IMG/VR virus record: IMGVR_UViG_3300042549_011229
Span: 1-27,419 of that record
Direction: 5' to 3' (one strand)
DNA from: a virus
Lineage: Duplodnaviria > Caudoviricetes
Length of the DNA stretch: 27,419 nt
Positions 5,785 to 27,419 of the stretch are shown one piece after another. Under the pieces are notes generated by a model that saw only the letters and a list, made by a program, of their open reading frames with translations, was not told the origin of the DNA and ran no database searches. A program made the translations under genes and the position numbers. The first letter of the stretch is position 1, and the number at the start of each line of letters is the position of its first letter.

Positions 5785-6387
5785 ATGCCCTCCTCGCAAA
5801 CCGCTGTCGGCAACGCCGCGCTCGCCAAGCTGGGGCAGGGGGCGGTGCTGTCGTTCGACGACCCGGACGATCGCGCGCGCTGGCTGAAGAGCCGGTTCGC
5901 CGATGTGCGGGACCTGACCCTGCGGTCCAACCGCTGGCACTTCGCCCTGGCCCGCGCGCGGTTGTCCGCGGAAGTCGCGGAGCCGGCCTTCGGCTATCAG
6001 CGGCAGTTTCCTCTGCCGACGGACTGTCTGCAGCTGGTCGAGGTGGCCGGCGTCTCGGTAACCCCGGGTCTGGCCGACTATGCGGCCGCGCCGCGTCCTG
6101 GCTTTGCCCTGGAGGGCGAGCGGATCCTGACCGACGCGGGGGCGCCGCTGGAGATCCGCTATGTCCGGCGGGTGACCGACGTCGGCGGCTGGGATCCCTT
6201 GTTCGCCGAGGCGGTGGCCTGCCGCCTGGCCTTCGACCTGGCGGAAAAGCTGACCCAGTCGAGCGGCAAGAAGGAGGCGGCCCTGCGCGACTACCAGCTG
6301 GCCATCCGCGAAGCCGTCCGCGTCAACGCCATCGAATCCCCGCCCGAGGAAGCCCCTGACGGCTCCTGGGTCCTGGCCCGTCTGTGA
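5785..6387 (+). CDS. Tail tubular protein A (T7 gp11-like adaptor), 200 aa
   Basis: Motifs NAALAKLGQ, WHFALAR, FPLPTDCL, IRYVRRVTD and DPLFAEAVACRLA. Confidence 0.88.
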   Translation: MPSSQTAVGNAALAKLGQGAVLSFDDPDDRARWLKSRFADVRDLTLRSNRWHFALARARLSAEVAEPAFGYQRQFPLPTDCLQLVEVAGVSVTPGLADYAAAPRPGFALEGERILTDAGAPLEIRYVRRVTDVGGWDPLFAEAVACRLAFDLAEKLTQSSGKKEAALRDYQLAIREAVRVNAIESPPEEAPDGSWVLARL

Positions 6388-8785: not shown

Positions 8786-9251
8786 GGCGGCGCAGGTTCT
8801 GCCGTTCCGCGCCGACCATCTGCGGGCCCTGACGCTGCAGCCGGCCCAGGCCGCCTGGCGCGGCCGGATCGATGGCGAGACCGGGGACGCCCTGGAGCAG
8901 GGGGGACTGGCCTGGACCCTGATGCGGGCCGGGCGGGTCATCGGCTGTGGCGGGGTCATCGACCGGGGATCGGGGCGGGGCGAGGCCTGGGCCCTGATCG
9001 CCCAGGACGCCGGTCCCGCCATGCTGGCCGCCACCCGGGCGGTGCGCCGCTATTTCCAGACCGCGCCCTTCCGCCGGATCGAGGCGGCGACCGCATGCCG
9101 GTTCGCGCCAGGCCGGCGATGGGCGGAGATGCTGGGCTTTCAGCCCGAGGGCGTCATGCGGGCCTTCTGCGAGGACGGCGACGACGCGATGCGCTGGGCG
9201 ATCATTCGACAAGAGGAGAGGGGCCAATGGCCTGGGCCGGAGCAATCCTGA
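8775..9251 (+). CDS. GNAT-fold protein (T7 gp13-like position), 158 aa
   Basis: GRVIGCGG, GEAW and RWAEMLGFQPEGVMRAF motifs; overlaps the tail B stop. Confidence 0.75.
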   Translation: MKGEAAQVLPFRADHLRALTLQPAQAAWRGRIDGETGDALEQGGLAWTLMRAGRVIGCGGVIDRGSGRGEAWALIAQDAGPAMLAATRAVRRYFQTAPFRRIEAATACRFAPGRRWAEMLGFQPEGVMRAFCEDGDDAMRWAIIRQEERGQWPGPEQS

Positions 9252-9706
9252 ACATCGTCGGCGCCGTGGCCGGCGTTGGCGGCAGCGTCGCCGACGGGCA
9301 GTCGAGCGCCGCCCAGCGGGGCTATGGCGCCCAGTTGGCGCGAGAGAATTCCAAGCTGGTCGGCGACCAGGCGGCGGCGCGGGAACTGTCCCTGCGGCGG
9401 GAGTCCGGCCAGGCGCTGGGCGAACAGCGGGCCGCCGTGGCGGAGAGCGGAACCGGGCTTGGCGGCAGCAATGGCCTGCTGATGGCCCAGGACGCGGCCC
9501 TGGCGGAACTGGATGCACTGAACACGCGGTATGAGGGGCGACTGAAGATGCACGAGTACGACGATCAGGCCCGGATGCTGGGCCAGGAACAGCCCAGCGG
9601 CCTGCAGCGGGTCTTTGGCAAGCGGGGCCTTGGGGCCATCAGTCACTACAACTGGGCGCCCTCGCTCCACTCGGCGACCTTCGGCTCGCCTCAGCGGGGG
9701 TGGTGA
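9227..9706 (+). CDS. Internal virion / ejection protein (T7 gp14-like), 159 aa
   Basis: ATG 9227 after GAGGAG. Hydrophobic Gly/Ala N-terminus plus GEQRAAVAESG.GLGGS and ELDALNTRYEG motifs, in the canonical position. Confidence 0.8.
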   Translation: MAWAGAILNIVGAVAGVGGSVADGQSSAAQRGYGAQLARENSKLVGDQAAARELSLRRESGQALGEQRAAVAESGTGLGGSNGLLMAQDAALAELDALNTRYEGRLKMHEYDDQARMLGQEQPSGLQRVFGKRGLGAISHYNWAPSLHSATFGSPQRGW

Positions 9707-9710
9707 GACC

Positions 9711-12059
9711 ATGGTGACCATTCCCCGATACCGCCAGCGCACCACCGTGCCATTGGGCGGCCTCGACTACAGCCTGGCCTTCGGCCCGACGACCGGCGAC
9801 GCCTTCCGCGCTGTCGGCCAGGTCGCCGGCGCGGCCGGCGGCATCCTGGGATCGGTGCAATCGCTCGGCGGCGGCCGTGGCGGCCGGCCGGCTTCCGGTT
9901 CCACTGGGGGCGAGCATCAGGGTGCGCCCCATGACTCCCGAGCCACGGGCGAAGGCTTCATCGACGGCGCGGCCGCGGACACCGAGGCCAAGGCGGCCGA
10001 TGTCGGCTGGCGGCGACAGGTGGCCGAATTGATGCGGGGCCTGCAGCATCAGGCGGACCGCAGCCCTCCGGCGGTCGAGGGGTCGGCGCCGGTCCAGGGT
10101 CCGGGCGCCGGCCTGGATGCGGGTCTGGCGGGCCTGCTGGGCGCGTTGCAGGACAGCCGGACTGAGGCGGCGAACGGCCTGGAGCCCGCCGCGAGGGCGC
10201 GGTTCGAAGCGGTCAGCGCCCGCCGTGAACCGGGCTTCGTCGCCGAGGCGGCGGCGCGGATGGCGCAGCAGACCAAGGCGCGGGCCCAGACGGTTTCTCT
10301 GGAGCGTGAAGCCCAGGGGGTGGCCGAGTTCGTCCGTCTCAGCGACATCGACGCGGACCAGGCGCGCGACGCCCTGGCTTCGGCGGTGGCGGAACGGACC
10401 GCGCGGCTGAGCGCCGAAGGGCTAGCCGCGGAGGTGGTGCGGACGGCTCGGCGGGACCTGCTGTCGCAGGCTCACGCCCAGCGGATCACCCAGGCGATCA
10501 GCCGCGATCCGGCGGCGGCCGAGGCCCTGCTGGAGGCCGATGGCGGGCTGATCGAGCCGGCGGCGCGGGACGGCCTGGCCGTGGCCATCCAGGACGAGCG
10601 CACCCGTACGGACGCGCGGGATCAAGTCGCGGCCCTGGCGCGTGGCATGGCCGATGTCGCCGGCGATCTCGATGGCCTGCTGGCCCGCGCTGGCGAGGCG
10701 GCGGGAAATGATCCGGCCAAGGCCGACGCCTACCGCGCCGCCGCCCTCGGCCTATGGCACGGCGCCCGTCAGGCCCGCGACGCGGCCGAAGACGCCGCCT
10801 GGACCGGCGTCCTGCCCCACCTGACCGGCGGGGCGGTCACCGCCTGGACCGACCTGCCGGCCGACGTCTGGCGCGCCTTGTCGCCGCGCCAGCAGGCGGC
10901 CGTCCGTGAGCGGACGGAAAGCCCCTATGGGGGGTCTGATCCGGAGGTTCTGGCCGAGTTGAAGGACATGGTCGCCAAGGACCCCGCGGGGTTCAAGGCG
11001 ATGGATTTGGGCGAGCTTTATGGGGCGCTGGCGCCGGAGGATGCGGCGCAGTGGCGGGCGCTGCAGGAGGAGGCGCGCACAAGCGGCAATGGGGCGCGAG
11101 CGGAGCTTGCATACATTTCAACGGTGTCGCGGGCCGTCGATCGGGTGATGCCGACGGGACTGGTCGGCGAGGGCGACCATGAGGCGTTCAGAAGCGGGGC
11201 CTACCAGGCGATCGCTGGCGCCGAAATCCTCGGAGATGGCAAGCTGAAGGCGTCCGAACTCGCGGACGCTTGCGGCGAGTTCCTTTCTGACTGGCTCGGA
11301 CAAAAAGAGCCGGCGGAAAGCTGGCAACGTCTGTTCGACGGCCTGATTGGCAGAAAGCCCGTGCCCAAAAAGACCGTTCCTCCAAAACCCGTCGTCAAGC
11401 CTCGGCCAGCGCTAAACCCCGACCTCGGCAGCTTGGCCAGGCTGATGGAAATCAGCAGCCGCAGCCCGAAGCCGGAGAAGTACTCATCCGGGCGCACGCG
11501 CGGCGGCCGGCCAGATTCCGGCGGCGTCTCGTTCGGTAGCTATCAGCTGAAATCCGCGAAGGATCCCAATACCCACAAGAGCCGCGTTGACGAGTTCCTC
11601 GCCGCTGAAGGGGCGAGGTGGGCCCCACGGTTCAATGGAATGGTTCCGACCGATGCGGGCTTCAAGGCCGAATGGAAGAAAATCGGGCTCAATGAGGCAG
11701 CGGCCTTTGAAGCTGCGCAGCATGCCTACATGAAGCGTACCCATTACGATATTCAAGTTACCAAAATTCTTAATGAAACCAGCGTCGATATAACAAATAG
11801 ATCGTACACGTTGCAGGATGTCGTCTGGTCGTCAGCAACTCAGCACGGACCACGCACCAGCGTTGTCTCGACCGCTGTAAAAAACCTTACCGGCTCTATT
11901 GGACCGTCCTTCACCGATGAGCAGCTGATTGCGGAGGTATATAAAGTTCGCACTAAAAAATATCCCGTAGAGGCGCCGCGGTTCGTGACGGAGGAGAAGG
12001 AGGCTCTGTCGCAGCTGGTTCAGGAAAGGGCTGCAAGCGCGCCGTTGACTCTACCTTGA
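9711..12059 (+). CDS. Full-length internal virion/ejection protein (gp15-like position) with C-terminal VgrG3-like peptidoglycan hydrolase (CT1, about 11407-12059), 782 aa
   Basis: Starts MVTIPRY immediately after the gp14-like gene, with an Ala-rich helical body and a Pro/Lys linker. The C-terminus (LGSLARLME..DSGGVSFGSYQL..AQHAYMKRTHYD..LQDVVWSSATQHG..RFVTE) matches the V. cholerae VgrG3-type muramidase pattern. GC content drops visibly in the CT. Confidence 0.8.
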   Translation: MVTIPRYRQRTTVPLGGLDYSLAFGPTTGDAFRAVGQVAGAAGGILGSVQSLGGGRGGRPASGSTGGEHQGAPHDSRATGEGFIDGAAADTEAKAADVGWRRQVAELMRGLQHQADRSPPAVEGSAPVQGPGAGLDAGLAGLLGALQDSRTEAANGLEPAARARFEAVSARREPGFVAEAAARMAQQTKARAQTVSLEREAQGVAEFVRLSDIDADQARDALASAVAERTARLSAEGLAAEVVRTARRDLLSQAHAQRITQAISRDPAAAEALLEADGGLIEPAARDGLAVAIQDERTRTDARDQVAALARGMADVAGDLDGLLARAGEAAGNDPAKADAYRAAALGLWHGARQARDAAEDAAWTGVLPHLTGGAVTAWTDLPADVWRALSPRQQAAVRERTESPYGGSDPEVLAELKDMVAKDPAGFKAMDLGELYGALAPEDAAQWRALQEEARTSGNGARAELAYISTVSRAVDRVMPTGLVGEGDHEAFRSGAYQAIAGAEILGDGKLKASELADACGEFLSDWLGQKEPAESWQRLFDGLIGRKPVPKKTVPPKPVVKPRPALNPDLGSLARLMEISSRSPKPEKYSSGRTRGGRPDSGGVSFGSYQLKSAKDPNTHKSRVDEFLAAEGARWAPRFNGMVPTDAGFKAEWKKIGLNEAAAFEAAQHAYMKRTHYDIQVTKILNETSVDITNRSYTLQDVVWSSATQHGPRTSVVSTAVKNLTGSIGPSFTDEQLIAEVYKVRTKKYPVEAPRFVTEEKEALSQLVQERAASAPLTLP
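10209..11406 (+). repeat. Master copy of the cassette repeat (core about 10565-10868 is shared by all six copies)
   Basis: Encodes RDGLAxAIQDERTRxxARDxVAALAxGMxDVAGDLDGLLARAG...AVTAWTDLPAxVW. It is repeated in direct orientation five more times downstream. Confidence 0.95.
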
Positions 12060-12060
12060 T

Positions 12061-12075
12061 GTTTATGTTTTGTTC
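12061..12075 (+). promoter_or_regulatory. LexA-like box (1 mismatch) before immunity candidate 1
   Basis: GTTT-atgtttt-GTTC. Confidence 0.55.
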
Positions 12076-12102
12076 TAGGGGTCTTTTTGAGGGTGTACGC
12101 GA

Positions 12103-12678
12103 ATGTACGCGACCAAGTCCCTGCTTGCCGGTTCAACGTTGTTGGCCGCCGCCGTGGGAATTTTCCTGACCGGTTGCGACAATCCCGCGCCGCGAGAAAC
12201 CGCGCCACCAGCACCGCCGGCTCAGCAGCCTCAGGACGAGGGCGAGCCTGGTCAGCCACCGGAGCACCGCCCAAAGGCATTCAGCACGCTGCCGGCCAAC
12301 TATGCTTTGGAAGGCACTTGGCGCCGACAGGACCGCGAAGGATGGATGACGATAACGGCCCTGCCGAAAGGACGTTGGCGAGTGCGGCTGCTGTCGTCCA
12401 GTCCGGACGAGGGTCCCGCTACCTCGGCGCCTTGCGGTCTGATCGCCGAGGGAGTGGTCAAAGATGGTTGGCTACTCGCATATATCGTACCGTACGACGA
12501 CGATGAGCTGGGTTTCGGCGTTGGCGAAGAAGAGTTAGCGCCCGGGGGCCGCCTATCGGGCAAGGTTCTGTTTATCGAATTTCTCGAGGGGAGAGCCGCC
12601 ATTTACGACGGGGCGTCTTGGGGAATCTGCGGGCACTTGGCCGATGTGACTGGAGATTACTGGCGAGCCAGCAAGTAG
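12103..12678 (+). CDS. Lipoprotein, putative immunity protein for CT1, 191 aa
   Basis: Lipobox FLTG-C followed by a Pro-rich tether. Lies directly after the toxin gene and is homologous to 21067-21675. Confidence 0.7.
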   Translation: MYATKSLLAGSTLLAAAVGIFLTGCDNPAPRETAPPAPPAQQPQDEGEPGQPPEHRPKAFSTLPANYALEGTWRRQDREGWMTITALPKGRWRVRLLSSSPDEGPATSAPCGLIAEGVVKDGWLLAYIVPYDDDELGFGVGEEELAPGGRLSGKVLFIEFLEGRAAIYDGASWGICGHLADVTGDYWRASK

Positions 12679-12724
12679 GGAGCCGCCAGTCCGAAACGGG
12701 GGCCGGCGTCCCTCACCAGTCCAA

Positions 12725-13597
12725 GAGGCCGGTGGCGGGCTGATCGATCCGACCGAGCGGGACGGCTGGCCCTGGCGATCCAGGACGAGCGCACCCGTAC
12801 GGATGCGCGCGACCGGGTCGCGGCCTTGGCGCATGGCATGGACGATGTCGCCGGAGACCTCGACGGCCTGCTGGCCCGCGCCGGGGAGGCGGCGGGGGAT
12901 GATCCGGCCAAGGCCGACGCCTACCGCGCCGCCGCCCTCGGCCTATGGCACGGCGCCCGCCAGGCCCGCGACGCGGCCGAGGACGCCGCCTGGACCGGCG
13001 TCCTGCCCCACCTGACCGGCGGGGCGGTCACCGCCTGGACCGACCTGCCGGCCGAAGTCTGGCGCGCCCTGTCGCCGCGCCAGCAGGCGGCTGTGCGTGA
13101 GCGGACGGAGAACCCCTATGGGGAGTCTGATCCGGCGGTTCTGGCCGGGTTGAAGGAGATGGTCGCGAAGGACCCGGCGGGGTTCAAGGCGATGGATTTG
13201 GGGGCGTTGTATGGTGCGCTGGCGCCGGCCGATGCGGCGGAGTGGAGGGCGTTGCAGGAGGAGGCGCGCACAAGCGGCAATGGGGCGCGAGCAGAGCTTG
13301 CATACATTTCAACGGTGTCGCGGGCCATCGATCGGGTGATGCCGACGGGACTGGTCGGCGAGGTCGACGATGAGGCGTTCAGAAGCGGGGCCTACAAGGC
13401 GATCGTTGACGCCGAAAACCTCGGAGACGGCAAGCTGAAGGCGTCAGAACTCGCGGACGCTTGCGGCGAGTTCCTTTCTGACTGGCTCGGACAAAAAGAG
13501 CCGGCGGAAAGCTGGCAACGTCTGTTCGACGGCCTGATTGGCAGAAAGCCCGTGCCCAAAAAGACCGTTCCTCCCAAACCCGTCGTCAAGCCTCGGC
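12725..13597 (+). repeat. Cassette repeat copy 2 (matches 10533-11406)
   Basis: Near-identical DNA including the linker, up to ..GTCAAGCCTCGGC. A 1-bp deletion near the 5' end (GGACGGCTGG vs GGACGGCCTGG) breaks the upstream frame. Confidence 0.95.
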
Positions 13598-14214
13598 TCA
13601 ACCACCGAGTGGACTGGTCATTCGTCGCGGAGCGGGAAGCGGTGGGCGGAAAACCAAAACTCGAGCTGTATGTTCCCCAAGAAGATGGCGTCGTCTTCGG
13701 ACGAAGCGGGGTAACCCTTGGACTGGGCGTCGATCTCGGAGGCTTGACGGTCCGCGACCTGACGGCGCTCGGCATTGAGCCGGCCCTCATCAATAAGCTA
13801 TCGCCATATCTTGGCCTGAAAGGCCAAACCGCCCTCTCGTTTGTAAAGGCGAAGCCGATGACCCTGACGCTTCGGGAGGTCGAGACTCTTGATAGGGCGG
13901 TTCAAGAGAAGGAACTTGGGTCTTTGATCCAGAAATACGATGCGGAATCGAAAGTTGGCGCGTTTGTGTCACTTCCGGCCGGAACTCAAACCGCGATCGC
14001 AGATGTCTTCTTTCAGTATGGCACCTCCGGACCCAAAGAAGCGGCGCCCGATTTTTGGGGAGCCATAACCACGGGAGATTGGAACAAGGCGCACGAGAGT
14101 CTTATGGATTTTCACGACGATTATCCAGATCGTAGGAAATTGGAGGCCGGTCTTCTGTTTGACGACATCAGGGCCGGGCGACTTCCAACAGCATCAACCA
14201 TCACGGAAAAGTAA
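12826..14214 (+). CDS. Orphan cassette 2: truncated ejection protein plus pesticin-like muramidase CT (about 13598-14214); possibly silent
   Basis: VDWSFVAERE..LYVP..SGVTLGLGVDLG..KLSPYLGLKG..LPAGTQTAIADVFFQYG..FW..DYPDRRKLEA matches the pesticin C-terminal domain pattern. The native N-terminus is missing. Confidence 0.8.
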   Translation: MAHGMDDVAGDLDGLLARAGEAAGDDPAKADAYRAAALGLWHGARQARDAAEDAAWTGVLPHLTGGAVTAWTDLPAEVWRALSPRQQAAVRERTENPYGESDPAVLAGLKEMVAKDPAGFKAMDLGALYGALAPADAAEWRALQEEARTSGNGARAELAYISTVSRAIDRVMPTGLVGEVDDEAFRSGAYKAIVDAENLGDGKLKASELADACGEFLSDWLGQKEPAESWQRLFDGLIGRKPVPKKTVPPKPVVKPRLNHRVDWSFVAEREAVGGKPKLELYVPQEDGVVFGRSGVTLGLGVDLGGLTVRDLTALGIEPALINKLSPYLGLKGQTALSFVKAKPMTLTLREVETLDRAVQEKELGSLIQKYDAESKVGAFVSLPAGTQTAIADVFFQYGTSGPKEAAPDFWGAITTGDWNKAHESLMDFHDDYPDRRKLEAGLLFDDIRAGRLPTASTITEK

Positions 14215-14263
14215 CAACGGCCGCCCAGCACAGCCGAATTCTCCTTGCGGTTCGCTTCGAGAT

Positions 14264-14278
14264 GTTCCATATTTGTTC
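14264..14278 (+). promoter_or_regulatory. LexA box before immunity candidate 2
   Basis: GTTC-catattt-GTTC, exact consensus. Confidence 0.8.
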
Positions 14279-14313
14279 TGGTTATTCAGTCGTCATACGT
14301 CGAGGCTACGGAT

Positions 14314-14940
14314 ATGCGGCGGGTCTGCTCGTTTTGGGCTTTTGCCTCGATTGGTTTTGCCGCTGCCTTGCTTCTAAATGGCTGCGAGGATTCGAGCGGT
14401 AAATTGTCCGCGAGCGCGCATCGAGTTGATCCTGCCTTCGAATGGAAATTATCCAGAGAATATCTTGAGTCGGGACAAGAAATTCTAGATTTCACAAGCG
14501 ACGGCCGATATTATGCTTCGAAGCGCGAATTCTTTGGCGATGAGCGCGGAAGCCAAATTCTTGAAGACGAATTGTTGTCCGTTCAGCTGGCGGTAGCCCT
14601 TACGGGGCCGCCTCAGGACGTGGTGAGCCTTCCCGGCGGCGCCAAACTTCTCTGGGGTTGCAGGCTACATAGTTGCGATGAAAAGGGTGTCGCGATCCTT
14701 GCCAACGACAAGCGTGTAATTACGGCTGGACTGATACACTCCAATTGCGCTGTTGAGCAGATGCAAAGGAGGAGAGGTCGGACCGATTGGGCGGACCCTA
14801 TTCGCCCTTGTCCGGAATTATTCCTGACAATCTTTACTGACGGCTCCGCCGCCGCCGAGAGCAATCGAAAGTACATTCAGCAATGGGCCGCCTTGTTTAT
14901 TGGCCATATTAAGACGCCTGAGGTGATCGCTGTCAGATGA
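14314..14940 (+). CDS. Lipoprotein with Ivy-like CxxHxC loop, putative immunity protein for CT2, 208 aa
   Basis: ATG 14314 after GAGG; lipobox LLNG-C. GCRLHSCDEKG resembles the CKPHDC inhibitory loop of Ivy lysozyme inhibitors. Confidence 0.7.
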   Translation: MRRVCSFWAFASIGFAAALLLNGCEDSSGKLSASAHRVDPAFEWKLSREYLESGQEILDFTSDGRYYASKREFFGDERGSQILEDELLSVQLAVALTGPPQDVVSLPGGAKLLWGCRLHSCDEKGVAILANDKRVITAGLIHSNCAVEQMQRRRGRTDWADPIRPCPELFLTIFTDGSAAAESNRKYIQQWAALFIGHIKTPEVIAVR

Positions 14941-14969
14941 TCCGCTGCCATCGTAGCGGCTTTGGGGGC

Positions 14970-15601
14970 CGGCTCGGCGGGACCTGCTGTCGCAGGCTCA
15001 CGCCCAGCGGATCACCCAGGCGATCAGCCGCGATCCGGCGACGGCCCGGGCTTTGCTGGAGGCCGACGGCGGGCTGATCGAGCCGGCGCAGCGGGACGGC
15101 CTGGCCCTGGCCATCCAGGACGAGCGCACCCGTAGGGAGGCGCGCGACCGGGTCGCGGCCCTGGCGCATGGCATGGACGATGTCGCCGGTGATCTCGACG
15201 GACTGCTGGCCCGCGCCGGCGAGGCGGCGGGGGATGATCCGGCCAGGGCCGACGCCTACCGCGCCGCGGCCCTCGGCCTATGGCACGGCGCCCGCCAGGC
15301 CCGCGACGCGGCCGAGGACGCCGCCTGGATCGGCGTCCTGCCCCACCTGACCGGCGGGGCGGTCACCGCCTGGACCGATCTGCCGGCCGACGTCTGGCGC
15401 GCCTTGTCGCCGCGCCAGCAGGCGGCCGTCCGTGAGCGGACGGAGAACCCCTATGGGGAGTCCGACCCGGAGGTTCTGGCGGGGTTGAAGGACATGGTCG
15501 CCAAGGACCCGGCGGCGTTCAAGGCGATGGATTTGGGGGCGTTGTATGGGACTCTGACGCCGGAGGATGCGGCGGAGTGGCGGGCGCTGCAGGAGGGGGC
15601 G
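14970..15601 (+). repeat. Cassette repeat copy 3 (matches about 10444-11075)
   Basis: Direct repeat from CGGCTCGGCGGGACCTGCTG to GCGCTGCAGGAGG. Confidence 0.93.
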
Positions 15602-16468
15602 AGAGCCATGACGCCGGAGTGGGCCACAAAGCGGGCCCATCTTTCAACCGCCTCAAGCACTATCGATTCCGCCGTCGCCAAGGTTGCTTCCGGCTTTGAA
15701 CGCGACGCGCTGCGAGCCCGACTTTACGAGAGCATATGGGACGCGGAGACCATCGCAGGGGGTGATCTGACACGCCAGCAACTCATTGAGCTTTGCGCAG
15801 ACCCTACGTGGTGGGAGGGCTTAGCCCGGAAAATCTGGCCAGACGACAAACAAGGCGGCGAACGCGCACTTCCACCGCCTCCGGGCCGCGTGGAAGAGCC
15901 CATGGGCGCACGGGACGACCGTCTACTTGAACAGGAGCGCCTGTCGGCCCGGTCCGGGATGACGAAGCAGCAACGCCTTCAAGCGGATAGGCGCGACTTC
16001 GCGCTATCTACCTGGCGAGGCGATCCGAGAGTCCAGGCGTTTCTGGACATGATCTCGAAGGCAGAGGGTTCAGACTATAACTCCCTCAGCGGCGATCTTC
16101 CTGACCAGCCGACAAAATGGGAGTTCCGTAGCTTTGACACGCATCCAGGCTGGGGAGCCCTATCTACCGCGTCGGGACGGTACCAAATCACCGAACCGAC
16201 TTGGAGAGATTTCGGGCAGCGCCTCGGCCTCAAGGATTTTTCGCCGGACACGCAGAACCTGATTGCAACGCAGATCCTTATCGACGCGGGTGTTCTGGCA
16301 GACCTTCGAAATAATAACTTCCCCGGCGCGATGGATCGGGCCTCAAGACGATGGGCGAGCTTGGCTTTTGCTCCTGGGAAGCCCGGACGGTACGGGCAAC
16401 CATCTAAGCCATTTGAATGGTCAGAAGCGGAATATCTGTCGAACCTTCGATCTCGTACCCAACAATGA
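15053..16468 (+). CDS. Orphan cassette 3: truncated ejection protein plus lambda-R-like lysozyme/transglycosylase CT (about 16022-16468)
   Basis: RVQAFLDMISKAEG..YN..STASGRYQI..TW..LGLKDFSP..Q..WASL..YGQP matches the lambda endolysin R family. Confidence 0.85.
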   Translation: MLEADGGLIEPAQRDGLALAIQDERTRREARDRVAALAHGMDDVAGDLDGLLARAGEAAGDDPARADAYRAAALGLWHGARQARDAAEDAAWIGVLPHLTGGAVTAWTDLPADVWRALSPRQQAAVRERTENPYGESDPEVLAGLKDMVAKDPAAFKAMDLGALYGTLTPEDAAEWRALQEGARAMTPEWATKRAHLSTASSTIDSAVAKVASGFERDALRARLYESIWDAETIAGGDLTRQQLIELCADPTWWEGLARKIWPDDKQGGERALPPPPGRVEEPMGARDDRLLEQERLSARSGMTKQQRLQADRRDFALSTWRGDPRVQAFLDMISKAEGSDYNSLSGDLPDQPTKWEFRSFDTHPGWGALSTASGRYQITEPTWRDFGQRLGLKDFSPDTQNLIATQILIDAGVLADLRNNNFPGAMDRASRRWASLAFAPGKPGRYGQPSKPFEWSEAEYLSNLRSRTQQ

Positions 16469-16499
16469 TGTGTTTCCGCGCAGATGCCTCTAAGCGCCC

Positions 16500-16530
16500 T
16501 TGACGGAGCAACAAAGTTCGCATTTTGTTC
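16500..16530 (+). promoter_or_regulatory. -35-like TTGACG plus LexA box before immunity candidate 3
   Basis: TTGACG at 16500-16505 and GTTC-gcatttt-GTTC at 16516-16530. Confidence 0.8.
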
Positions 16531-16568
16531 CTCTTCTGCCGTCTACTCGATCTTAGGGTAACCGTGTC

Positions 16569-17597
16569 ATGAGAGTGTCTCCCCGACGCGCCGTTTTGCC
16601 GTTGGCCTGCTTAAGCCTGTCCCTCGCCGCTTGCGGCAACCCGGCTTCCAACCTGCCGGTCGCCGAGGCCGCCTCGATGGATGCGGTTCCAACCCTAAGA
16701 GCCACCGGTGATGCTGCACCTGCTGCCGCCGCCAAGCCGGCGCCTGTTGGTGGTATGCATGAAACCGCCGATAGCCTTGCAGGCTGGCGGCGGGAAGTCT
16801 GTCCGGCCATGGGTAAAGAGTATGATTTGACCGACCGCGATACGCCAGCGTTGGCGCTGGCAATTAGGTCCGATGACTGGGTCAAGGCGAGGCAAATTCT
16901 ACTCTTTGGGCCCATCGAGCCAAGTGGTCTGACCATCGAGCAGGCGGCGAGACTCAAGACGGAACGGGCGTCCATCCGGATGATCCGCGCAGCCGCGGTC
17001 GGAGATGTCGCCGAGTTGGATCGGCTGGTCACCAAGGGCGGCAACCCGAACATCAACATCGCGATGGACGAAACGATGACGCCGCTGGCCTGGGCCGCCA
17101 AGTGCAACAATGTTGCTGCTGTGAAATACCTGATTTCAAAAGGGGCGAAGGTAAATGATCCGGTTGTCTACGCCATTGGCCGAGGAGAGTATCGCAACAG
17201 CAGCGCCTTGATGTGGGCGACCAGGCTCGGTTCAGAAGGCGCGGTGGCCGTCTTGTTGAAAGCCGGTGCGGATCCGAACATGCAGGTTCGCTTCAAGGTC
17301 CTTGGTGTGGGTGACGGGCTGGGGGAGACCGCCTTGCTCTTGTCGCCGACACTGAGTCTCACGCGGCGTCTACTGGCGGCTGGCGCAGACCCCAACCAAG
17401 CTACAAGCGAAGGCGAGGTTCGCCTAATGGCAACGGCCCGGTCCAACGATATTGAAGAAGCAACGCTGTTGATGAAATTCGGGGCGACGGTGAATTTGGT
17501 CAATAAAGATATGAAGACGCCAATCGATCTGGCCCGCGAAGGTGGTCACGGCGAAATGGTCAGGCTCCTGCTTGAGAAGCCCGATTCTGAAAACTAG
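16569..17597 (+). CDS. Ankyrin-repeat lipoprotein, putative immunity protein for CT3, 342 aa
   Basis: Lipobox LAA-C. Ankyrin motifs TPLAWAA, ALMWA..LLKAGADPN and KTPIDLA. Confidence 0.82.
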   Translation: MRVSPRRAVLPLACLSLSLAACGNPASNLPVAEAASMDAVPTLRATGDAAPAAAAKPAPVGGMHETADSLAGWRREVCPAMGKEYDLTDRDTPALALAIRSDDWVKARQILLFGPIEPSGLTIEQAARLKTERASIRMIRAAAVGDVAELDRLVTKGGNPNINIAMDETMTPLAWAAKCNNVAAVKYLISKGAKVNDPVVYAIGRGEYRNSSALMWATRLGSEGAVAVLLKAGADPNMQVRFKVLGVGDGLGETALLLSPTLSLTRRLLAAGADPNQATSEGEVRLMATARSNDIEEATLLMKFGATVNLVNKDMKTPIDLAREGGHGEMVRLLLEKPDSEN

Positions 17598-17639
17598 CCT
17601 TCACTGCGTAAACTAACCTATCTGGCAGCGCCCCCGCAT

Positions 17640-18280
17640 CGACATCGACCCGGACCAGGCGCGCGACGCCCTGGCCTCGGCGGTGGCGGAGCGAACCGCG
17701 CGGCTGAGCGCCGAAGGGCTGGACGCGGAGGCGGTGCGGACGGCTCGGCGGGACCTGCTGTCGCAGGCTCACGCTCAGCGGATCACCCAGGCGATCACTA
17801 GGGACCCGGTGACGGCCCAGGCTTTGCTCGACCGTGACGGCGGGCTGATCGAGCCGGCCGAGCGGGACGGCCTGTCCCTGGCCATCCAGGACGAGCGCAC
17901 CCGTACGGACGCGCGCGACCGAGTCGCGGCCCTGGCGCATGGCATGGAGGATGTGGCCGGCGATCTCGACGGCTTGCTGGCCCGCGCCGGTGAGGCGGCG
18001 GGGGACGATCCGGCCAAGGCCGACGCCTACCGCGCCGCCGCCCTCGGCCTATGGCACGGCGCCCGCCAGGCCCGCGACGCGGCCGAGGACGGCGCCTGGA
18101 CCGGCGTCCTGCCCCACCTGACCGGCGGGGCGGTCACCGCCTGGACCGACCCGCCGGCCGACGTCGAAGAAGCCTCAGCCGGCCAAATCGATGATTGAAT
18201 TGAGAGATCGCTACGAGCGGTACCTTATCGAGGAAAGGGCGGTCCCGCCGAAACCCGGTCCGTTTGACAGGAGGCAGTAG
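17640..18280 (+). pseudogene. Orphan cassette 4: repeat copy (17640-18165) joined by deletion to the 3' stub of a lost toxin
   Basis: The repeat stops abruptly at GCCGACGTC (18165). An out-of-frame stub at 18167-18280 (KKPQPAKSMIELRDRYERYL...*) resembles the end of lambda-R-type CTs. Confidence 0.75.
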
Positions 18281-18299
18281 TATCTGCCTTCTTCAAAAC

Positions 18300-18323
18300 T
18301 TGACAAAAGTTCCTATTTTGTTC
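18300..18323 (+). promoter_or_regulatory. Perfect -35 (TTGACA) plus LexA box before immunity candidate 4
   Basis: TTGACA at 18300-18305 and GTTC-ctatttt-GTTC at 18309-18323. Confidence 0.85.
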
Positions 18324-18354
18324 TTATATCTCGCAGGCTTTTGGAGAGCTCGAG

Positions 18355-19386
18355 ATGAGGGCGGCTGTGGTGTTTCTCTCAGTTATGACCATCGCTATCG
18401 TCATTTCGGGATGCAGGCCAGAACAGAAAAGCAAGACGACAGTCGGAAGTGACTCGGTCGACGACGGGCAGCCGATCTACAGCGATCCAAATGAGCCATT
18501 TCTTTTCTCAGATGACGACTTTGCAAAAAATCAGGCCGATTCTAGAAAGTCTTATTGCGCGACTGTCGCCTTTCGCACCTATCAAGGCAAGGGCCCTTCG
18601 TCACCGAAACTGGTCAAGGCCTTAAGGCAGGATGACCATTGGACGGCAAGGCAGGAACTGGCGGCCGACGTGGCGACACCGACAGGTTTAAGCGCGCCCC
18701 AGAGGCGATGGATCGATCTTACCCGAAAGTCTCTTGAGTTGACCGCTGCCTCGGCGCGAGGAGACGTGGATGCTGTCAAAAAGCTGCTGGCCGAGGGGGC
18801 AGATCCCAATTTTGCCGTCGAGGATCGTAAGACCATGGGGCCGATGGCCTGGGCCGCGCTGTGCGATAGGGCCGATGTCGTCAAGGCGCTGGTAGCGGCA
18901 GGAGGGCAAGTCGATCAGGTCTTTTCTTGGGAGGTTAGCAGAGAGCAACTCTTCTTCACACCGCTGGGGTTGGCCGCAGACCAAAGTGCGGCTGCATCCG
19001 TGGTGGCGCTCCTCAAAGCCGGGGCCGATCCCAATGCTTTCTACTCGACGCCAGAAGCCCGCCGAGGTTGGGGCGGGTCTGGGCTCCCGCCATTATTAGG
19101 CACCTCGACGCACAAGGTCGTTGAGGCCTTGCTCGACGGTGGGGCCAATCCCGACGTCGCCAACGCGGGAGGGTGGACTCCCTTGATGAATGCGGCGGAG
19201 TGGAATGACCCGGGGAAGATTACTTTGCTGCTGCAGTACGGGGCGAACCCCAAGCTGAGGAACGACAACGGCGACACGGCGCTCGATATGGCGCGTCGGA
19301 ACCCGTCGAATGAATCCGTTCTTGCCCTTACCGGAACTGCGCCAAAGCGCAGATATCCAAGGGGTCGGGCGCAAACCGTCCACTAA
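18355..19386 (+). CDS. Ankyrin-repeat lipoprotein, orphan immunity candidate and paralogue of 16569-17597, 343 aa
   Basis: Lipobox VISG-C. Ankyrin motifs TPLGLAA, GWTPLMNAA and GDTALDMA. Shares DDxxxARQxL..PxGL..TMxPxAWAAxC with immunity candidate 3. Confidence 0.82.
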   Translation: MRAAVVFLSVMTIAIVISGCRPEQKSKTTVGSDSVDDGQPIYSDPNEPFLFSDDDFAKNQADSRKSYCATVAFRTYQGKGPSSPKLVKALRQDDHWTARQELAADVATPTGLSAPQRRWIDLTRKSLELTAASARGDVDAVKKLLAEGADPNFAVEDRKTMGPMAWAALCDRADVVKALVAAGGQVDQVFSWEVSREQLFFTPLGLAADQSAAASVVALLKAGADPNAFYSTPEARRGWGGSGLPPLLGTSTHKVVEALLDGGANPDVANAGGWTPLMNAAEWNDPGKITLLLQYGANPKLRNDNGDTALDMARRNPSNESVLALTGTAPKRRYPRGRAQTVH

Positions 19387-19410
19387 ACGCCCCTTCGGGA
19401 TTGGCCGGCG

Positions 19411-21006
19411 GTGACGGCAGCGCAGCGGGACGGCCTGGCCGTGGCCATCCAGGACGAGCGCACCCGGACGGACGCGAGAGATCAGGTCGCGGCCCTGGCG
19501 CATGGCATGGCCGATGTCGCCGGGGATCTCGATGGCCTGCTGGCCCGCGCTGGCGATGCGGCGGGAAATGATCCGGCCAAGGCCGACGCCTACCGGGCCG
19601 CCGCCCTCGGCCTATGGCACGGCGCCCGTCAGGCCCGCGACGCGGCCGAGGACGCCGCCTGGACCGGCGTCCTGCCCCACCTGACCGGCGGGGCGGTCAC
19701 CGCCTGGACCGACCTGCCGGCCGACGTCTGGCGCGCCTTGTCGCCGCGCCAGCAGGCGGCCGTCCGTGAGCGGACGGAGAACCCCTATGGGGGGTCTGAT
19801 CCGGAGGTTCTGGCCGAGTTGAAGGACATGGTCGCCAAGGACCCCGCGGGGTTCAAGGCGATGGATTTGGGGCAGCTGTATGGGGTGCTGGCGCCGGAGG
19901 ACGCGGCGGAGTGGCGGGCGCTGCAGGAGGGGGCACGGTCGGGGGAGGAGGTATGGGGGCGGAGTCAGGCCCAGTTGGCGATGGTTAGCCGGGCCGTAGA
20001 CTTCGTGAACAGAGATAGATCAGGCAGGCGCTCACCATTCTACCAAGCAATCGAGCAGGCCAGCGCCCGACAAGCCGCACCCCTGACGTGGAATGAAATG
20101 CTGGCGGCCTGCCAGCCGGTGTCCTCGACGTCTCCAGGACTGTTCCAGCGGGAGGCTGAAGCAGATGCCGTTAGGAAATCCGTCGTAGCAGCCTTGCCGC
20201 AGAATGCATCGGCCGACGATCCTTTCGCACCCCCGCTTTCACCTGAAGACATGCTCTCGCCGGGGTGGCGTCGTCCGGATGAAAACCCCAACCTCGGCGC
20301 CTTATCCAAAGAAAAGGAGTCGGGCGGGGCGGGCCCAGGGCTGATCACTCGAGCAAAAGGTGACCCAGGGCAGGCCTCTTATGGTATTTATCAGTTCTCC
20401 ACCAGATACGGTGTCGCGAAGGACTTCGCGCTTTCTGCAGAGGCGGCTCCTTGGAGGAATCTCTTTGGTAGGGCGCCGGCTCCCGGTACGACCGCATTCG
20501 ACGTCGCATGGGAGTCGGCGGCGGCCGCCGATCCGAGCGGTTTCGCCAGTGCCCAACACCAATTCTACAAGCGATCCGCATTTGACCCGTTTTTGACGAC
20601 GCTCAACCTCGCAACTTCTAAAAAGCTGAGCGTCGGGACGACGCTGGATTTTCGGAAAAGCTCATACGTCCTTCAGGATGTTCTTTGGTCGACGCGCGTT
20701 CACCACGGCAATGACGGAGCTATAAATGTGGTTGAGAACGCGATGAGAGATGCCGATTTCATAAGAAGGGTCGAGGTATACAGCCACGGCCCATGGTCTA
20801 ACGATGAAAGGGAGCGGTTGAAATTCGATGCGGAGCGCGACCTTATCGCTGCTGTATACGCAGAGCGCGGTAGAACTGATGCTAACGGCGGTCTAGTATA
20901 CTTTAAGGCCGCCGGAGCCAGGTTTTCAAAGGGTCTGAAGCTGAGGTTCATTGACGAGGCCCGCTCTGCCTTGGCGGCTCAAAGCGAGGAGGCCCGACTA
21001 CGATGA
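19411..21006 (+). CDS. Orphan cassette 5: repeat copy (about 19420-19934) plus second VgrG3-like hydrolase CT (about 20284-21006)
   Basis: LGALSKEKES..GDPGQASYGIYQF..AQHQFYKR..SYVLQDVLWST..HG..LIAAVYAERG..RFIDE; a divergent homologue of CT1. Confidence 0.82.
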   Translation: MTAAQRDGLAVAIQDERTRTDARDQVAALAHGMADVAGDLDGLLARAGDAAGNDPAKADAYRAAALGLWHGARQARDAAEDAAWTGVLPHLTGGAVTAWTDLPADVWRALSPRQQAAVRERTENPYGGSDPEVLAELKDMVAKDPAGFKAMDLGQLYGVLAPEDAAEWRALQEGARSGEEVWGRSQAQLAMVSRAVDFVNRDRSGRRSPFYQAIEQASARQAAPLTWNEMLAACQPVSSTSPGLFQREAEADAVRKSVVAALPQNASADDPFAPPLSPEDMLSPGWRRPDENPNLGALSKEKESGGAGPGLITRAKGDPGQASYGIYQFSTRYGVAKDFALSAEAAPWRNLFGRAPAPGTTAFDVAWESAAAADPSGFASAQHQFYKRSAFDPFLTTLNLATSKKLSVGTTLDFRKSSYVLQDVLWSTRVHHGNDGAINVVENAMRDADFIRRVEVYSHGPWSNDERERLKFDAERDLIAAVYAERGRTDANGGLVYFKAAGARFSKGLKLRFIDEARSALAAQSEEARLR

Positions 21007-21011
21007 TGGGC

Positions 21012-21026
21012 GTTGCCATTTTGTTC
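21012..21026 (+). promoter_or_regulatory. LexA-like box (1 mismatch) before immunity candidate 5
   Basis: GTTG-ccatttt-GTTC. Confidence 0.55.
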
Positions 21027-21066
21027 TAGCCCGCATAGTTTTGACCTCTCCGCATGCGAGGAACCT

Positions 21067-21675
21067 ATGGCTTCAAAATGTACCCTCGTCCTGTTGATCT
21101 CGTCGCTGGCTGTCACGACCGGTTGCGACAAGCGAAATGGTCAACCCGATAGCTCTAATGTCGCCATCGCTGGACAGGAGGGCTATGCAAAATCATCTAC
21201 TCGACAGGCAACGGATAAATGCTGCGTCGACTATCGGGACGAGGTGACTCAGTCTCGCCTGCTTCAAAGGCAGGCTGATGAGGAGGAGAAGGCTCGGCAG
21301 CAGGATCAAGCTCTATTCAAACCAGTTAGCCGGTTTGAGCGAATTGTTCCTTCCGGCTGGCCAGGGGCCGAATTCGTATTGTCGCGTGACGGAGCGCGGT
21401 GGCGTGTGGAAATTGTTGTTGGCGCGGAGCCGGCCGGCATAGCAACAAAGGCCGACTGCCGCATGATCTTGATCGGCCACATGAAAAATGGCCGACTTGT
21501 GGTTGGGCCGAATAAAGAAACCTCTATTGCTGCCGATTATGTTAGGGGCAGCGTTGTTCAAATGATTTCAATAAATGGAAACTTTGCGAAAATATTAGAC
21601 AATAACTCTTCCGCATACTGTGATGGCCCGTACTATGCTAAGGGGGTCTATAAGAAATCTGGCAAAAATCGGTGA
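21067..21675 (+). CDS. Lipoprotein, putative immunity protein for CT5, 202 aa
   Basis: ATG 21067 after GAGGA; lipobox VTTG-C. The RWRV..GxATxAxC..G..KxGxL..C..GxY pattern is shared with 12103-12678. Confidence 0.7.
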   Translation: MASKCTLVLLISSLAVTTGCDKRNGQPDSSNVAIAGQEGYAKSSTRQATDKCCVDYRDEVTQSRLLQRQADEEEKARQQDQALFKPVSRFERIVPSGWPGAEFVLSRDGARWRVEIVVGAEPAGIATKADCRMILIGHMKNGRLVVGPNKETSIAADYVRGSVVQMISINGNFAKILDNNSSAYCDGPYYAKGVYKKSGKNR

Positions 21676-21720
21676 TCGTTGCGTCTTGGAAAATTAACTG
21701 GGCAAGGCGCCCCTCAGCGG

Positions 21721-22447
21721 GCGGTTAGCGCCCGCTGCGAACCTGGTTTTGTCGCCGAGTTCGTCCGTCTCAGCGACATCGATCCGCACTAGGCCCCTGA
21801 CGCCCTGGCTTCAGCCATGCAGTCTGCGCGGCGGGCGCTGCTGTCCCAGGCTTATGCCCAGAGAATCGCCCAGGCAATCGGCCGCGATCCGGCCGCGGCC
21901 CAGGCGTTGCTCGACCGGGACGGCGGAGCGGGACGGCCTGGCCCTGGCCATCCACGACGAGCGCACCCGTAGGGAGGCGCGCGACCGGGTCGCGGCCCTG
22001 GCGCATGGCATGGACGACGTCGCCGGCGATCTCGATGGCCTGCTGGCCCGCGCTGGCGATGCGGCGGGAAATGATCCGGCCAAGGCCGACGCCTACCGGG
22101 CCGCCGCCCTCGGCCTACGGCACGGCGCCCGCCAGGCCCGCGACGCGGCCGAGGACGCCGCCTGGATCGGCGTCCTGCCCCACCTGACCGGCGGGGCGGT
22201 CACCGCCTGGACCGACCTGCCTGCCGACGTCTGGCGCGCCCTGTCGCCGCGCCAGCAGGCGGCGGTCCGCGAGCGGACGGAGAACCCCTATGGGGAGTCG
22301 GATCCGGTGGTTCTGGCCCGGTTGAAGGACATGGTCGCCAAGGACCCTGCGGGGTTCAGATCATGGCCTTGGGAGAACTGTTTGAACGTCAGCGGCGATG
22401 CAGGTTATGGACAGGGCCAAGGGCCCCTTGAAATGTCCGGGCTATAG
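21721..22447 (+). pseudogene. Orphan cassette 6: decayed repeat copy with no toxin domain
   Basis: Matches the master from 10209 but has internal deletions and a TAG in the ancestral frame. The core is intact, then frameshifts after DPAGF (MALGELF vs MDLGELY). No CT follows. Confidence 0.8.
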
Positions 22448-22526
22448 GCTGCCCTCGCCCACTGCGGGGCGGCCGGAATGAACCAAACAGGCGGAAACAA
22501 GACCCAAACGGTCGGCTAGGATTGAG

Positions 22527-23660
22527 ATGATGCGGCGCGCGCCCAAACTGACAATCGAGGACATCATCCGTTTCAGCGCCCTGATCTGTGGGTGCCTGTT
22601 GTTTTTCGTAACCGCCGCGCCGGCGGCAGCCCAGACTCCTGCGCAAGATGTCGCCAATGGCATAGCCGCTCGAAACAAGGGCGATGAAGCCGGTGCGACG
22701 AAGCTGTTTGAACGCGCCTGTACGGCGAGGGTCACAGCGGGCTGTTTCAATATTGGGCTGGCCTATGAATTCGGCCGGGGCGTCACCATCGATCTGGCTC
22801 GCGCCACCGGACTCTACGACAAGGCCTGCAACGGAGGGGACGGCCGGGGCTGCACCTATCTTGGCAGCAGCTATGCCAGCGGCAAGGGCGTCGCCACCGA
22901 TGCAAACCGCGCCAACGGCTTGTTTGAGAAGGCCTGCGCGATGGGCGATGGGGAAGGCTGCACGATCCTTGGCTCGCAATATTCCGCGGGGTCGACCGTT
23001 CCCCGCGACCTGGCCCGGGCGAATGCGCTGTACGAGAAGGGCTGCAACGCCGGGCACGCAAGAGGCTGCGTGGCCCTCGCTGAGAACTATACGACCGGGA
23101 CGGGCCTTGCCGCCGATCTGGGGCGGGCCGATGTCTTCTTTGAGAAAGCCTGCAATGCAGATTCCTCCAACGCCTGTCTGCGGCTTGCAAGCAAGTACGC
23201 CAATGGCACAGGCGTCACCCGCGACGACAGCCGCGCCGCCGGCTTCTACGAAAAGGCCTGCAATTCGACGTATGGCGGAAACAAGGGGTGCTTCGGCCTC
23301 GGGGTCTTCTATGAAAATGGCAGAGGCGTTACGCGGGATCTCGTCCGCGCCAATGAACTCTATGCGAAATCCTGCACCCTCATGGAAGCGCGAGCCTGCC
23401 TGAACCTGGGATACAACTACCAGAACCAGAGAGGCATAGCGCGGGATCTGACCGGTGCTCAGGCGACTGCCCGCGCCATTCCGTTTTACGAGCGGGCGTG
23501 CAAAGGCGGCGTTGACAAGGGCTGCCTCAATCTCGGCAACATCTACCGGAGTGGGACAGGCGTCACGGCTGATCCGGCCCGGGCGAGGCAGTTCTACCAG
23601 CTGGCATGCACGGCGGGGAACCAAGAGGGCTGTCAGTTGGCCCGGGCTCCAAGCAACTAG
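22527..23660 (+). CDS. Secreted Cys-rich Sel1-like repeat protein, possible orphan immunity protein, 377 aa
   Basis: Signal peptide ending AAA-Q. Nine Cys pairs (mostly C-x7-C) in roughly 36-aa repeats of the form YEKAC..GCxxLGxxYxxGxGVxxD. Confidence 0.88.
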   Translation: MMRRAPKLTIEDIIRFSALICGCLLFFVTAAPAAAQTPAQDVANGIAARNKGDEAGATKLFERACTARVTAGCFNIGLAYEFGRGVTIDLARATGLYDKACNGGDGRGCTYLGSSYASGKGVATDANRANGLFEKACAMGDGEGCTILGSQYSAGSTVPRDLARANALYEKGCNAGHARGCVALAENYTTGTGLAADLGRADVFFEKACNADSSNACLRLASKYANGTGVTRDDSRAAGFYEKACNSTYGGNKGCFGLGVFYENGRGVTRDLVRANELYAKSCTLMEARACLNLGYNYQNQRGIARDLTGAQATARAIPFYERACKGGVDKGCLNLGNIYRSGTGVTADPARARQFYQLACTAGNQEGCQLARAPSN

Positions 23661-24260: not shown

Positions 24261-24291
24261 ATGCGATAATAGGCGGCCGCTTCGATAGCGG
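24261..24291 (+). promoter_or_regulatory. Putative promoter motif A, copy 2
   Basis: ATGCGATAAT-N5-GCCGCTTCGATAGCGG, as at 990-1021. Confidence 0.6.
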
Positions 24292-27174: not shown

Positions 27175-27176
27175 TC

Positions 27177-27419
27177 ATGGCGGTTCCCAAGCTCATCCTC
27201 GATGTCTTCACCGGTCCCGACGGCCGGACCTGGGCGATCGGAAGGCTCTACTCCCTGCCCATGCTCTGCGCCGGGTTGGCCCTTCCCTTTGTGATGATAA
27301 TCCGTGGACAGACCATCGATCCTCTGGCGGCCTTGACCGGCTATGGGGCCCTGGGCGGCGGCATCTGGGCGCTGATCCGTGGAACCCACGGGACCGAGCC
27401 CCCGGGGGAGGGCGCATGA
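27177..27419 (+). CDS. Small two-TM membrane protein, putative holin, 80 aa
   Basis: Two hydrophobic segments, located after the tail fibre. Ends in ATGA, suggesting a coupled downstream gene outside the window. Confidence 0.55.
   Translation: MAVPKLILDVFTGPDGRTWAIGRLYSLPMLCAGLALPFVMIIRGQTIDPLAALTGYGALGGGIWALIRGTHGTEPPGEGA

Follow-up and report, generated by a model that had tools for sequence, protein, structure and literature searches.

Polymorphic toxin systems are defined by a conserved N-terminal carrier, a variable C-terminal toxin, an adjacent immunity gene and truncated cassettes (PMC4436062; this and all other sources given by PMC number are cited from excerpts). CdiA, Rhs, MafB and evolved VgrG proteins (VgrG3/VgrG3cp) share this layout of carrier, variable C-terminus (CT), immunity gene and 5'-truncated cassettes, and in MuF toxins the same idea is realised on a phage head-associated protein, for which delivery by the capsid has been proposed (PMC3482391, PMC12226406). 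Here we describe such a layout on a podovirus ejection protein, in a 27,419-nt stretch of Caudoviricetes DNA (IMG/VR record IMGVR_UViG_3300042549_011229, positions 1 to 27,419; the window). A full-length gene in the gp15 position (EJ) ends in a predicted peptidoglycan hydrolase tip and precedes an array of truncated copies and genes for exported proteins, the putative immunity partners (Table 1). Judged on sequence, the locus is a polymorphic toxin system in the genomic sense, having a conserved N-terminal body, a matched exported neighbour and 5'-truncated cassettes with a shared recombination region; toxicity, neutralisation and delivery are predicted.

The cargo resembles that of Vibrio cholerae VgrG3, which alternates between VgrG3-like and pesticin-like tips, the same pair as here (PMC9927483). 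However, only the C-terminal family matches evolved VgrG: the carrier is a podovirus ejection protein, and a search for VipB, sheath protein of type VI secretion systems (T6SS), gave 0 matches in the 100%-complete, 4.35-Mb genome that carries the element (G000), with an E. coli control positive. MuF toxins differ as well, since no MuF domain was detected in Pfam or PHROG scans of the window and the EJ body is homologous to gp15-position genes; compared with MuF prophages, the tips here are predicted to act on peptidoglycan, the partners are exported, and integrase, replication genes and gp16 are absent. The gene order (TerL, portal, capsid, tail A/B, GNAT, gp14, gp15, fibre, holin) is that of BcepC6B/BPP-1-like phages, and hydrolase domains sit on ejection proteins in T7/PhiM1-type ejectosomes as they do here. 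Unlike in BcepC6B/BPP-1-like phages, gp16 is replaced by partners and cassettes, an internal SLT domain is deleted, the tip is variable, LexA boxes are present and the chromosomal site is fixed. The initial annotation had called the ejection protein T7-like: its podovirus gp15 position stands, while among named phages the closest are temperate podoviruses of the BcepC6B/BPP-1 type rather than T7 proper.

Tailocins (R/F pyocins) and extracellular contractile injection systems are domesticated, SOS-linked phage particles that are released by lysis and used against other cells; they are headless and of long-tailed origin. The element in the window instead retains genes for portal, capsid and terminase, and its particle would have a short non-contractile tail and an enzyme cargo with predicted immunity; by analogy, it would match tailocins in role while having a head and a short tail. 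CcGTA is likewise a domesticated phage with dispersed, co-regulated loci and no replication genes; it belongs to another phage lineage, and the element described here differs from it in that its recurrent upstream motif (motif 2, below) is unlike the GafZ element and a gp16-type conduit was not found.

Blastn and domain searches bore out the earlier, purely sequence-based claims that the gp15-position gene ends in a cell-wall hydrolase and that five 5'-truncated copies with differing C-termini (pesticin-like, lambda-like, none, VgrG3-like, none) follow it. The EJ tip, at about residues 569–773, is a VgrG3-like muramidase (PF21277 VgrG3-like_C, E 2e-32), and its structural model matched 4nso in a VIA-type comparison (Z 17.3). 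The mid-section of EJ is present six times in the window, once in the full-length gene and once in each downstream copy, the latter at 88–96% nucleotide identity to 9711–12059 over 513–874 nt (blastn). Copies 2–6 begin at different EJ codons (about 275, 244, 210, 285 and 167/243) and the copies differ by 4–12%; CT and partner segments have a GC content of 0.52–0.63, versus 0.70–0.75 in the repeats. The tip of cassette 2 retains the T201/D207 positions of pesticin, and the sequence that this cassette has in common with EJ reaches codon 565, ~110 codons beyond cassettes 3 and 5, which suggests a recent exchange of tips between cassette 2 and EJ. The second VgrG3-like tip, in cassette 5, is divergent (28% identity to the EJ tip), and no catalytic domain was found in cassettes 4 and 6.

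Behind every copy lies a gene for an exported protein; five of these proteins have a lipobox Cys and the sixth a Sec-type leader (by inspection), in agreement with the initial annotation. A search for the repeat protein across genomes, which that annotation had suggested, returned 10 other distinct loci in which a hydrolase-tipped ejection gene precedes an exported gene (G108, L020, L030, L019, L031, L023 as a remnant, L034, L035, L049 and L069; near-duplicates merged); contigs such as L029, L037, L050, L052, L054 and L055 end before the ejection genes or lack annotation. Four tip classes occur across loci, namely VgrG3-like, pesticin, lambda-like and Hydrolase_2, of which the Hydrolase_2 tips fell below the cut-off and the lambda-like tips outside the window were called by BLAST to cassette 3. 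L020, L030 and G108 carry pesticin, lambda-like and VgrG3-like tips, respectively, although they group together in a single capsid clade with support of 97/98, and the proteins P0007/P0008 are 94–100% identical over 350 aa and unrelated thereafter. Truncated remnant cassettes recur in L023, L034 and L035.

The class of the partner follows that of the tip. Lambda-like tips precede an ankyrin lipoprotein in 3/3 cases (the window, L019 and L030), pesticin tips a partner family with an invariant W-x2-R-x-H in 3/3, and Hydrolase_2 tips a protein of 140–149 aa in 2/2 (by inspection); behind VgrG3-like tips we found family A in three of six cases, genes including LprI in two (the LprI partner scoring above cut-off) and a family-unassigned lipoprotein in one. 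Partner 1 is 49% identical to an L034 gene sited behind a VgrG3-like remnant. The family A profile had no match among PDB sequences and only three unnamed proteins otherwise, Atlas returning unnamed lipoprotein clusters. Partner 2, with no Pfam match, is likely Ivy-like by two weak tests: Atlas placed it at 0.86 to a cluster that is 90% PF08816, and in VIA its low-confidence model (pLDDT 52) matched Ivy 1uuz best (Z 7.1) and a second Ivy chain at 6.6, with a GNAT structure level with them at 6.8. The profile of pesticin partners had no Ivy match by sequence, Foldseek placed Ivy only 24th, and a profile search showed that the partners are not TsiV3 homologues. Taken together, tips that vary on a conserved scaffold, a partner class that tracks them, and partners that belong to or resemble lysozyme-inhibitor families (LprI; Ivy-like) support the polymorphic-toxin reading of the initial annotation. 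Its assignment of a putative immunity role to all the downstream genes fits the tip-partner correspondence, with the exception of the sixth (Sel1) gene, for which such a role is doubtful because it has neither a tip nor a LexA box.

EJ directly follows the gp14-like gene, is 31–34% identical to the gp15 of an intact prophage (G046), and has phrog_10475 in common with the gp15 of G046 and L027. Its body, all-helical in the structural model, is devoid of the internal SLT domain that the G046 homologue has, and a search of 50,697 annotated phages with it gave no match. In T7, the pore in the outer membrane is made by gp14, the tunnel across the periplasm by gp15 and the DNA conduit through the inner membrane into the cytoplasm by gp16 (PMC8954989). 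A large open reading frame (ORF) lies directly after gp15 in all seven phage or prophage-like controls (G046, L027, L038, L056, L058, L064 and BcepC6B). In the window, by contrast with these controls, partner genes and cassettes occupy the place of gp16 and the fibre gene comes directly after the array; a fibre likewise follows without gp16 in 8/10 other loci, L031 ending at its contig and L049 being an exception. No gp16 body was found in G000 with the G046 gp16, two other gp16-type queries or phrog_342, which gave only short matches at profile positions 15–150. The G046 query, which is blind to gp16 of the L056 type, was also negative in 9/9 other genomes; the L056 query matched G405, where the locus (L037) breaks off ahead of the ejection genes. 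By analogy with T7, the remaining gp14 and gp15-like proteins would reach the periplasm, the site where the tips would act.

As to regulation, LexA of Caulobacter has the consensus GTTC-N7-GTTC (PMC12700426), and the window contains 4 of the 21 exact AT-rich boxes of this type in the 4.35-Mb genome; the same scan recovered boxes at genes that by inspection are recA-, radA-, dnaE- and ssb-like. When one mismatch was tolerated, 5/6 window junctions and 10/10 other loci had a box within 125 nt after the stop codon, against a background of 0/9 prophage junctions and 26/3347 host stops (0.8%). Of the three tipless loci described below, one has a box, which lies inside the next ORF. Motif 2 is likely a late promoter or regulator site. 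Apart from its two positions in Table 1, a further copy lies just upstream of the small pre-portal gene, outside the window, and there are 16 occurrences in G000. It was present in 11/127 genomes, 10 of them capsid-positive, with five capsid-positive genomes lacking it, and its strict form is absent from G441, a toxin-bearing genome. Some twelve more sites with motif 2 lie in front of degenerate repeats of the 'PIPIR..DP' type. Identity of motif 2 with the GafZ element was rejected, given no match to GCGCCCG-CTGGCGC (PMC11150451).

The element appears to be settled in its host chromosome. The end of contig C33 overlaps C27 by 127 nt, a sequence occurring only at these two ends. Upstream, C33 carries an XRE-S24 repressor, a GcrA-like gene and a fusion of a Cro-like helix-turn-helix (HTH) with TerL, then host genes; downstream of the fibre come the likely holin, spanin-like genes (beyond the window) and a nitroreductase; host genes flank both sides. 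No integrase, primase or helicase was present among the flanking ORFs, and recombinase, primase and helicase-like queries from G046 had no tblastn match in G000. An apparent lack of terminase (Pfam terminase searches of G000 were negative) was rejected on finding TerL on C33. In G108, a single-contig genome of the same genus, identical host genes flank the element. Of 127 genomes of the genus, 15 gave a capsid match, and the EJ profile matched 6/401 genomes of the family, all six within the host genus. All structural ORFs of the window are open, and the core genes show a synonymous excess (synonymous to non-synonymous codon differences in the capsid of 27:2 and 56:23).

From the lack of gp16, the swappable tips and the likely antidote genes, we infer that a freshwater bacterium likely has here a weapon against its rivals. 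It is probable, in our view, that the window encodes a podovirus particle, domesticated and SOS-linked, by which interchangeable muramidases are injected into the periplasm of competitors. On balance, if a little less firmly, we also favour a fuller version, in which a podovirus DNA-ejection machine has been reduced to gp14 and a toxin-tipped gp15, kin are guarded by exported inhibitors under LexA control and host DNA serves only as a spring; this would be a new class of weapon. The gp16 loss, the domesticated state and the LexA boxes, none of which figured in the initial annotation, strengthen the polymorphic-toxin reading. DNA damage would induce a subset of cells to assemble heads and short tails and then to lyse; the fibre would bind a competitor, gp14 would open its outer membrane, and the gp15-like protein would enter the periplasm, where the tip would cut peptidoglycan. 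Without gp16 nothing would be delivered to the cytoplasm, packaged host DNA providing the driving pressure only, and kin would survive by means of the cognate exported inhibitor. VgrG3-like and pesticin-like domains are proven periplasmic T6SS toxins with adjacent immunity genes (PMC9927483), and recombination can bring a cassette into the full-length gene of a toxin (PMC4436062). The truncated cassettes may be a store of old tips, recombinable into EJ through the shared repeat, whose partner genes would continue to protect.

Several observations weigh against this injected-toxin interpretation. Hydrolases on gp15-type proteins are a normal infection aid in lytic phages, for example residues 718–903 of the PhiM1 OEP (PMC11440229) and K1E gp35 (PMC8954989), and the N-terminal part of T7 gp16 stabilises the gp15 tunnel (PMC8954989), so an ejectosome devoid of gp16 may not work. 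The loss of gp16 is, moreover, not universal, and its loss in the whole clade was rejected: L049, from the same clade, has an untipped gp15, the tip being on a protein derived from gp16, and L051 retains the start of gp16. Structural support for the EJ body is weak (Foldseek, PhiM1 ejectosome chain 8vb2 at E 0.06, rank 3, and T7 core at E 0.76; VIA against the PhiM1 chain, Z 7.5, root-mean-square deviation 10.2, 237 aligned). In the pairwise alignment of the EJ tip with VgrG3 there is a gap at the catalytic Glu of VgrG3, and E580 was assigned as the EJ counterpart only by eye from family sequences. Links within partner families amount to only 19–26% identity, partly via alignment motifs, and partner 2 is not significantly similar to the L020 partner (BLASTP, E 0.34). 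It is hard to see why LexA should repress immunity genes when unstressed kin need protection, unless the repression is leaky. The lysis cassette of G000 is without an endolysin, a 54% homologue lying alone on C38 (45803–46168). Finally, decay is common among the loci: L026, L032 and G366 keep head and tail genes and encode a tipless protein, with neither a partner nor a fibre gene next to it, and in L023 the two tail genes are gone.

A rival reading is a helper-dependent particle, or one akin to gene transfer agents (GTAs), in which host DNA is packaged, the tip is an ordinary virion hydrolase, and the partners only shield producers and recipients from it. Such a particle would fit a TerL that is intact in 5/5 genomes tested, even where displaced from the cluster, the dispersed TerS-like genes and motif-2 sites of G000 (4/6 TerS-like regions have a motif-2 variant just upstream), and the presence of packaging genes with replication genes absent, as in GTAs. 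We nevertheless consider it unlikely: the absence of the gp16 conduit argues against transfer of random host DNA to recipients, and DNA transfer gives no reason for four unrelated tips, matched partners and orphan cassettes. Yet another role for the exported proteins would be anti-phage exclusion, with the muramidases of incoming podoviruses blocked under SOS and tip fragments merely co-captured. The partners do have LexA-like boxes of their own and themselves remain intact after tip loss (partner 4; L023, L034 and L035), and LprI and Ivy-like folds are general lysozyme inhibitors. In related intact prophages, however, the SLT or GH108 domains are internal and partners of this kind are absent, which leaves no donor for ready-made tip-partner modules. 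The simple loci have exactly one full-length tipped gene and a single partner matched to it, and their head, tail and fibre genes nearby are intact. We consider exclusion distinctly improbable.

That the locus is a decaying prophage littered with effector-immunity debris and of no present function we judge to be more improbable still. The broken cassettes 4 and 6, the partial losses in L023, L026, L032 and G366, and the confinement of the capsid to a minority of genus genomes all point in that direction; the synonymous excess in core genes, the open structural ORFs and the recurrence of the tip-partner-LexA design in 11 loci point the other way. As for misassembly of strain variants, a worry that the initial annotation itself had raised, this was a short-read assembly with repeats, and the order of the cassettes rests on assembly because no single unitig spans the whole array. 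Unitigs of a public run (X1, possibly the source sample) nonetheless span each junction of tip, partner and next repeat with 0 differences and at a depth of 13–18, equal to that of the flanks. As the copies differ by 4–12% and remnant cassettes recur in other loci, we regard an artefact as very improbable indeed. Pieces are also present in three further lake-water runs.

The toxin-injecting particle is our preferred reading. The locus is real and unusual; it would be a new delivery variant of polymorphic toxins and, if killing is shown, a new class of particle weapon. If this is true, polymorphic toxins gain a new delivery route, with the first podovirus-derived killing particle that our search came across, and it becomes askable whether gp14 and gp15 eject and act without gp16, DNA being needed for pressure only. 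Candidate inhibitors would then be at hand for lambda-type lysozymes (ankyrin lipoproteins), VgrG3-type tips (family A) and pesticin-type tips (Ivy-like proteins), and the series from the intact prophage in G046 through L049 and the gp16-less loci to the decayed ones would show a path from phage to weapon. In the literature covered (titles and abstract openings, with subscription journals and supplements outside), no description came up of a domesticated podovirus with toxins on its ejection proteins, the closest idea being the capsid delivery proposed for MuF toxins, and the first 300,000 characters of PMC3482391 contain no mention of 'internal virion' or 'podo'.

Table 1 Features of the window, with positions in nt and supporting matches or remarks.
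Feature	Position	Strand	Match or remark
Small pre-portal phage gene	1..180	+	homologues at the same place in G108, G027, G046
Exact LexA-type box GTTC-N7-GTTC, before portal	968..982	+	
Motif 2 before portal, GATAAT-N6-10-CGCTTCGATA	994..1017	+	likely late promoter or regulator site
Portal (head-tail connector)	1049..2692	+	PF12236 E 2e-112; phrog_332
Bbp19-like protein	2689..2967	+	PF25181
Scaffold/protease-like	2960..3784	+	phrog_3742, phrog_458
Major capsid protein	4106..4993	+	PF19821, phrog_3437
Conserved virion gene after capsid	5189..5695	+	66–86% identity in related loci
Tail tubular A / adaptor	5785..6387	+	phrog_394
Tail tubular B / nozzle	6398..8785	+	phrog_376 E 4e-176
GNAT-fold gene, gp13 position	8775..9251	+	phrog_4177; weak PF13302
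gp14-like internal virion protein	9230..9706	+	phrog_418 E 1.5e-14
EJ, full-length gp15-like ejection protein, 782 aa	9711..12059	+	helical body and C-terminal tip
LexA-like box, 1 mismatch, before partner 1	12061..12075	+	
Partner 1, lipoprotein, family A	12103..12678	+	predicted immunity to EJ tip
Cassette 2, truncated repeat with pesticin-like tip	12725..14214	+	PF16754 Pesticin E 1.5e-36
Exact LexA-type box, before partner 2	14264..14278	+	
Partner 2, lipoprotein, likely Ivy-like lysozyme inhibitor	14314..14940	+	
Cassette 3, truncated repeat with lambda-lysozyme-like tip	14967..16468	+	1am7/3d3d E 3e-12
Exact LexA-type box, before partner 3	16516..16530	+	
Partner 3, ankyrin-repeat lipoprotein	16569..17597	+	Pfam-type search
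Cassette 4, truncated repeat, tipless	17637..18198	+	stops inside repeat
Exact LexA-type box, before partner 4	18309..18323	+	just 3' of TTGACA hexamer
Partner 4, ankyrin-repeat lipoprotein, orphan	18355..19386	+	33% to partner 3
Cassette 5, truncated repeat with second VgrG3-like tip	19420..21006	+	PF21277 E 4e-28
LexA-like box, 1 mismatch, before partner 5	21012..21026	+	
Partner 5, lipoprotein, family A	21067..21675	+	
Cassette 6, decayed repeat (stop, deletions), tipless	21721..22447	+	stops inside repeat
Sel1-repeat protein, Sec-type leader	22527..23660	+	no LexA box; role uncertain
Motif 2 before fibre gene	24265..24287	+	
Tail fibre, N-terminus conserved, remainder variable	24373..27174	+	distal parts differ in related loci
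Likely holin	27165..27419	+	position and conservation

Among the structural genes, the nozzle is 37% identical to BcepC6B gp12, and neither the conserved virion gene after the capsid (no Pfam or PHROG match) nor the likely holin (no Pfam match) could be placed in a family by these searches. The small pre-portal gene and the portal are separated by an inserted GFA-family gene at 605–934, a spot where other genomes have other insertions, and between the Sel1 gene and the fibre (23820–24170, minus strand) lies part of a gene for a membrane protein that by eye resembles an acyltransferase. Fibre genes have only their first 130–200 residues in common across loci, which suggests variation in target range alongside tip variation. 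Related loci have a Tlde1-domain endolysin between holin and spanin, of which the G000 homologue is the gene on C38 noted above. The three tipless loci retain portal, capsid and tail genes at high identity and also have no adjacent lysis genes.

A second, barely related gp15 lineage occurs in L031 (13298–15763), L049 and L051, sharing with EJ the first 50–70 residues alone, perhaps a capsid-loading signal. L049:13167–19719 is a possible intermediate, in which the gp16-derived protein has a VgrG3-like end and precedes a lipoprotein gene with a LexA box. Fusions of TerL with a Cro/YdaS-like HTH are found at C33:91758–93572 in G000 and in two copies in G108 (3923411–3925279 and 3960184–3962556). 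The six TerS-like matches of G000 are dispersed (C26:36300–36761, C38:66829–67853, C41:31682–32113, C7:38–184, C23:173–397), motif-linked TerS genes also occur in G449 and G437, and the dispersed TerS-like/motif-2 sites could be packaging-start sites or a regulon.

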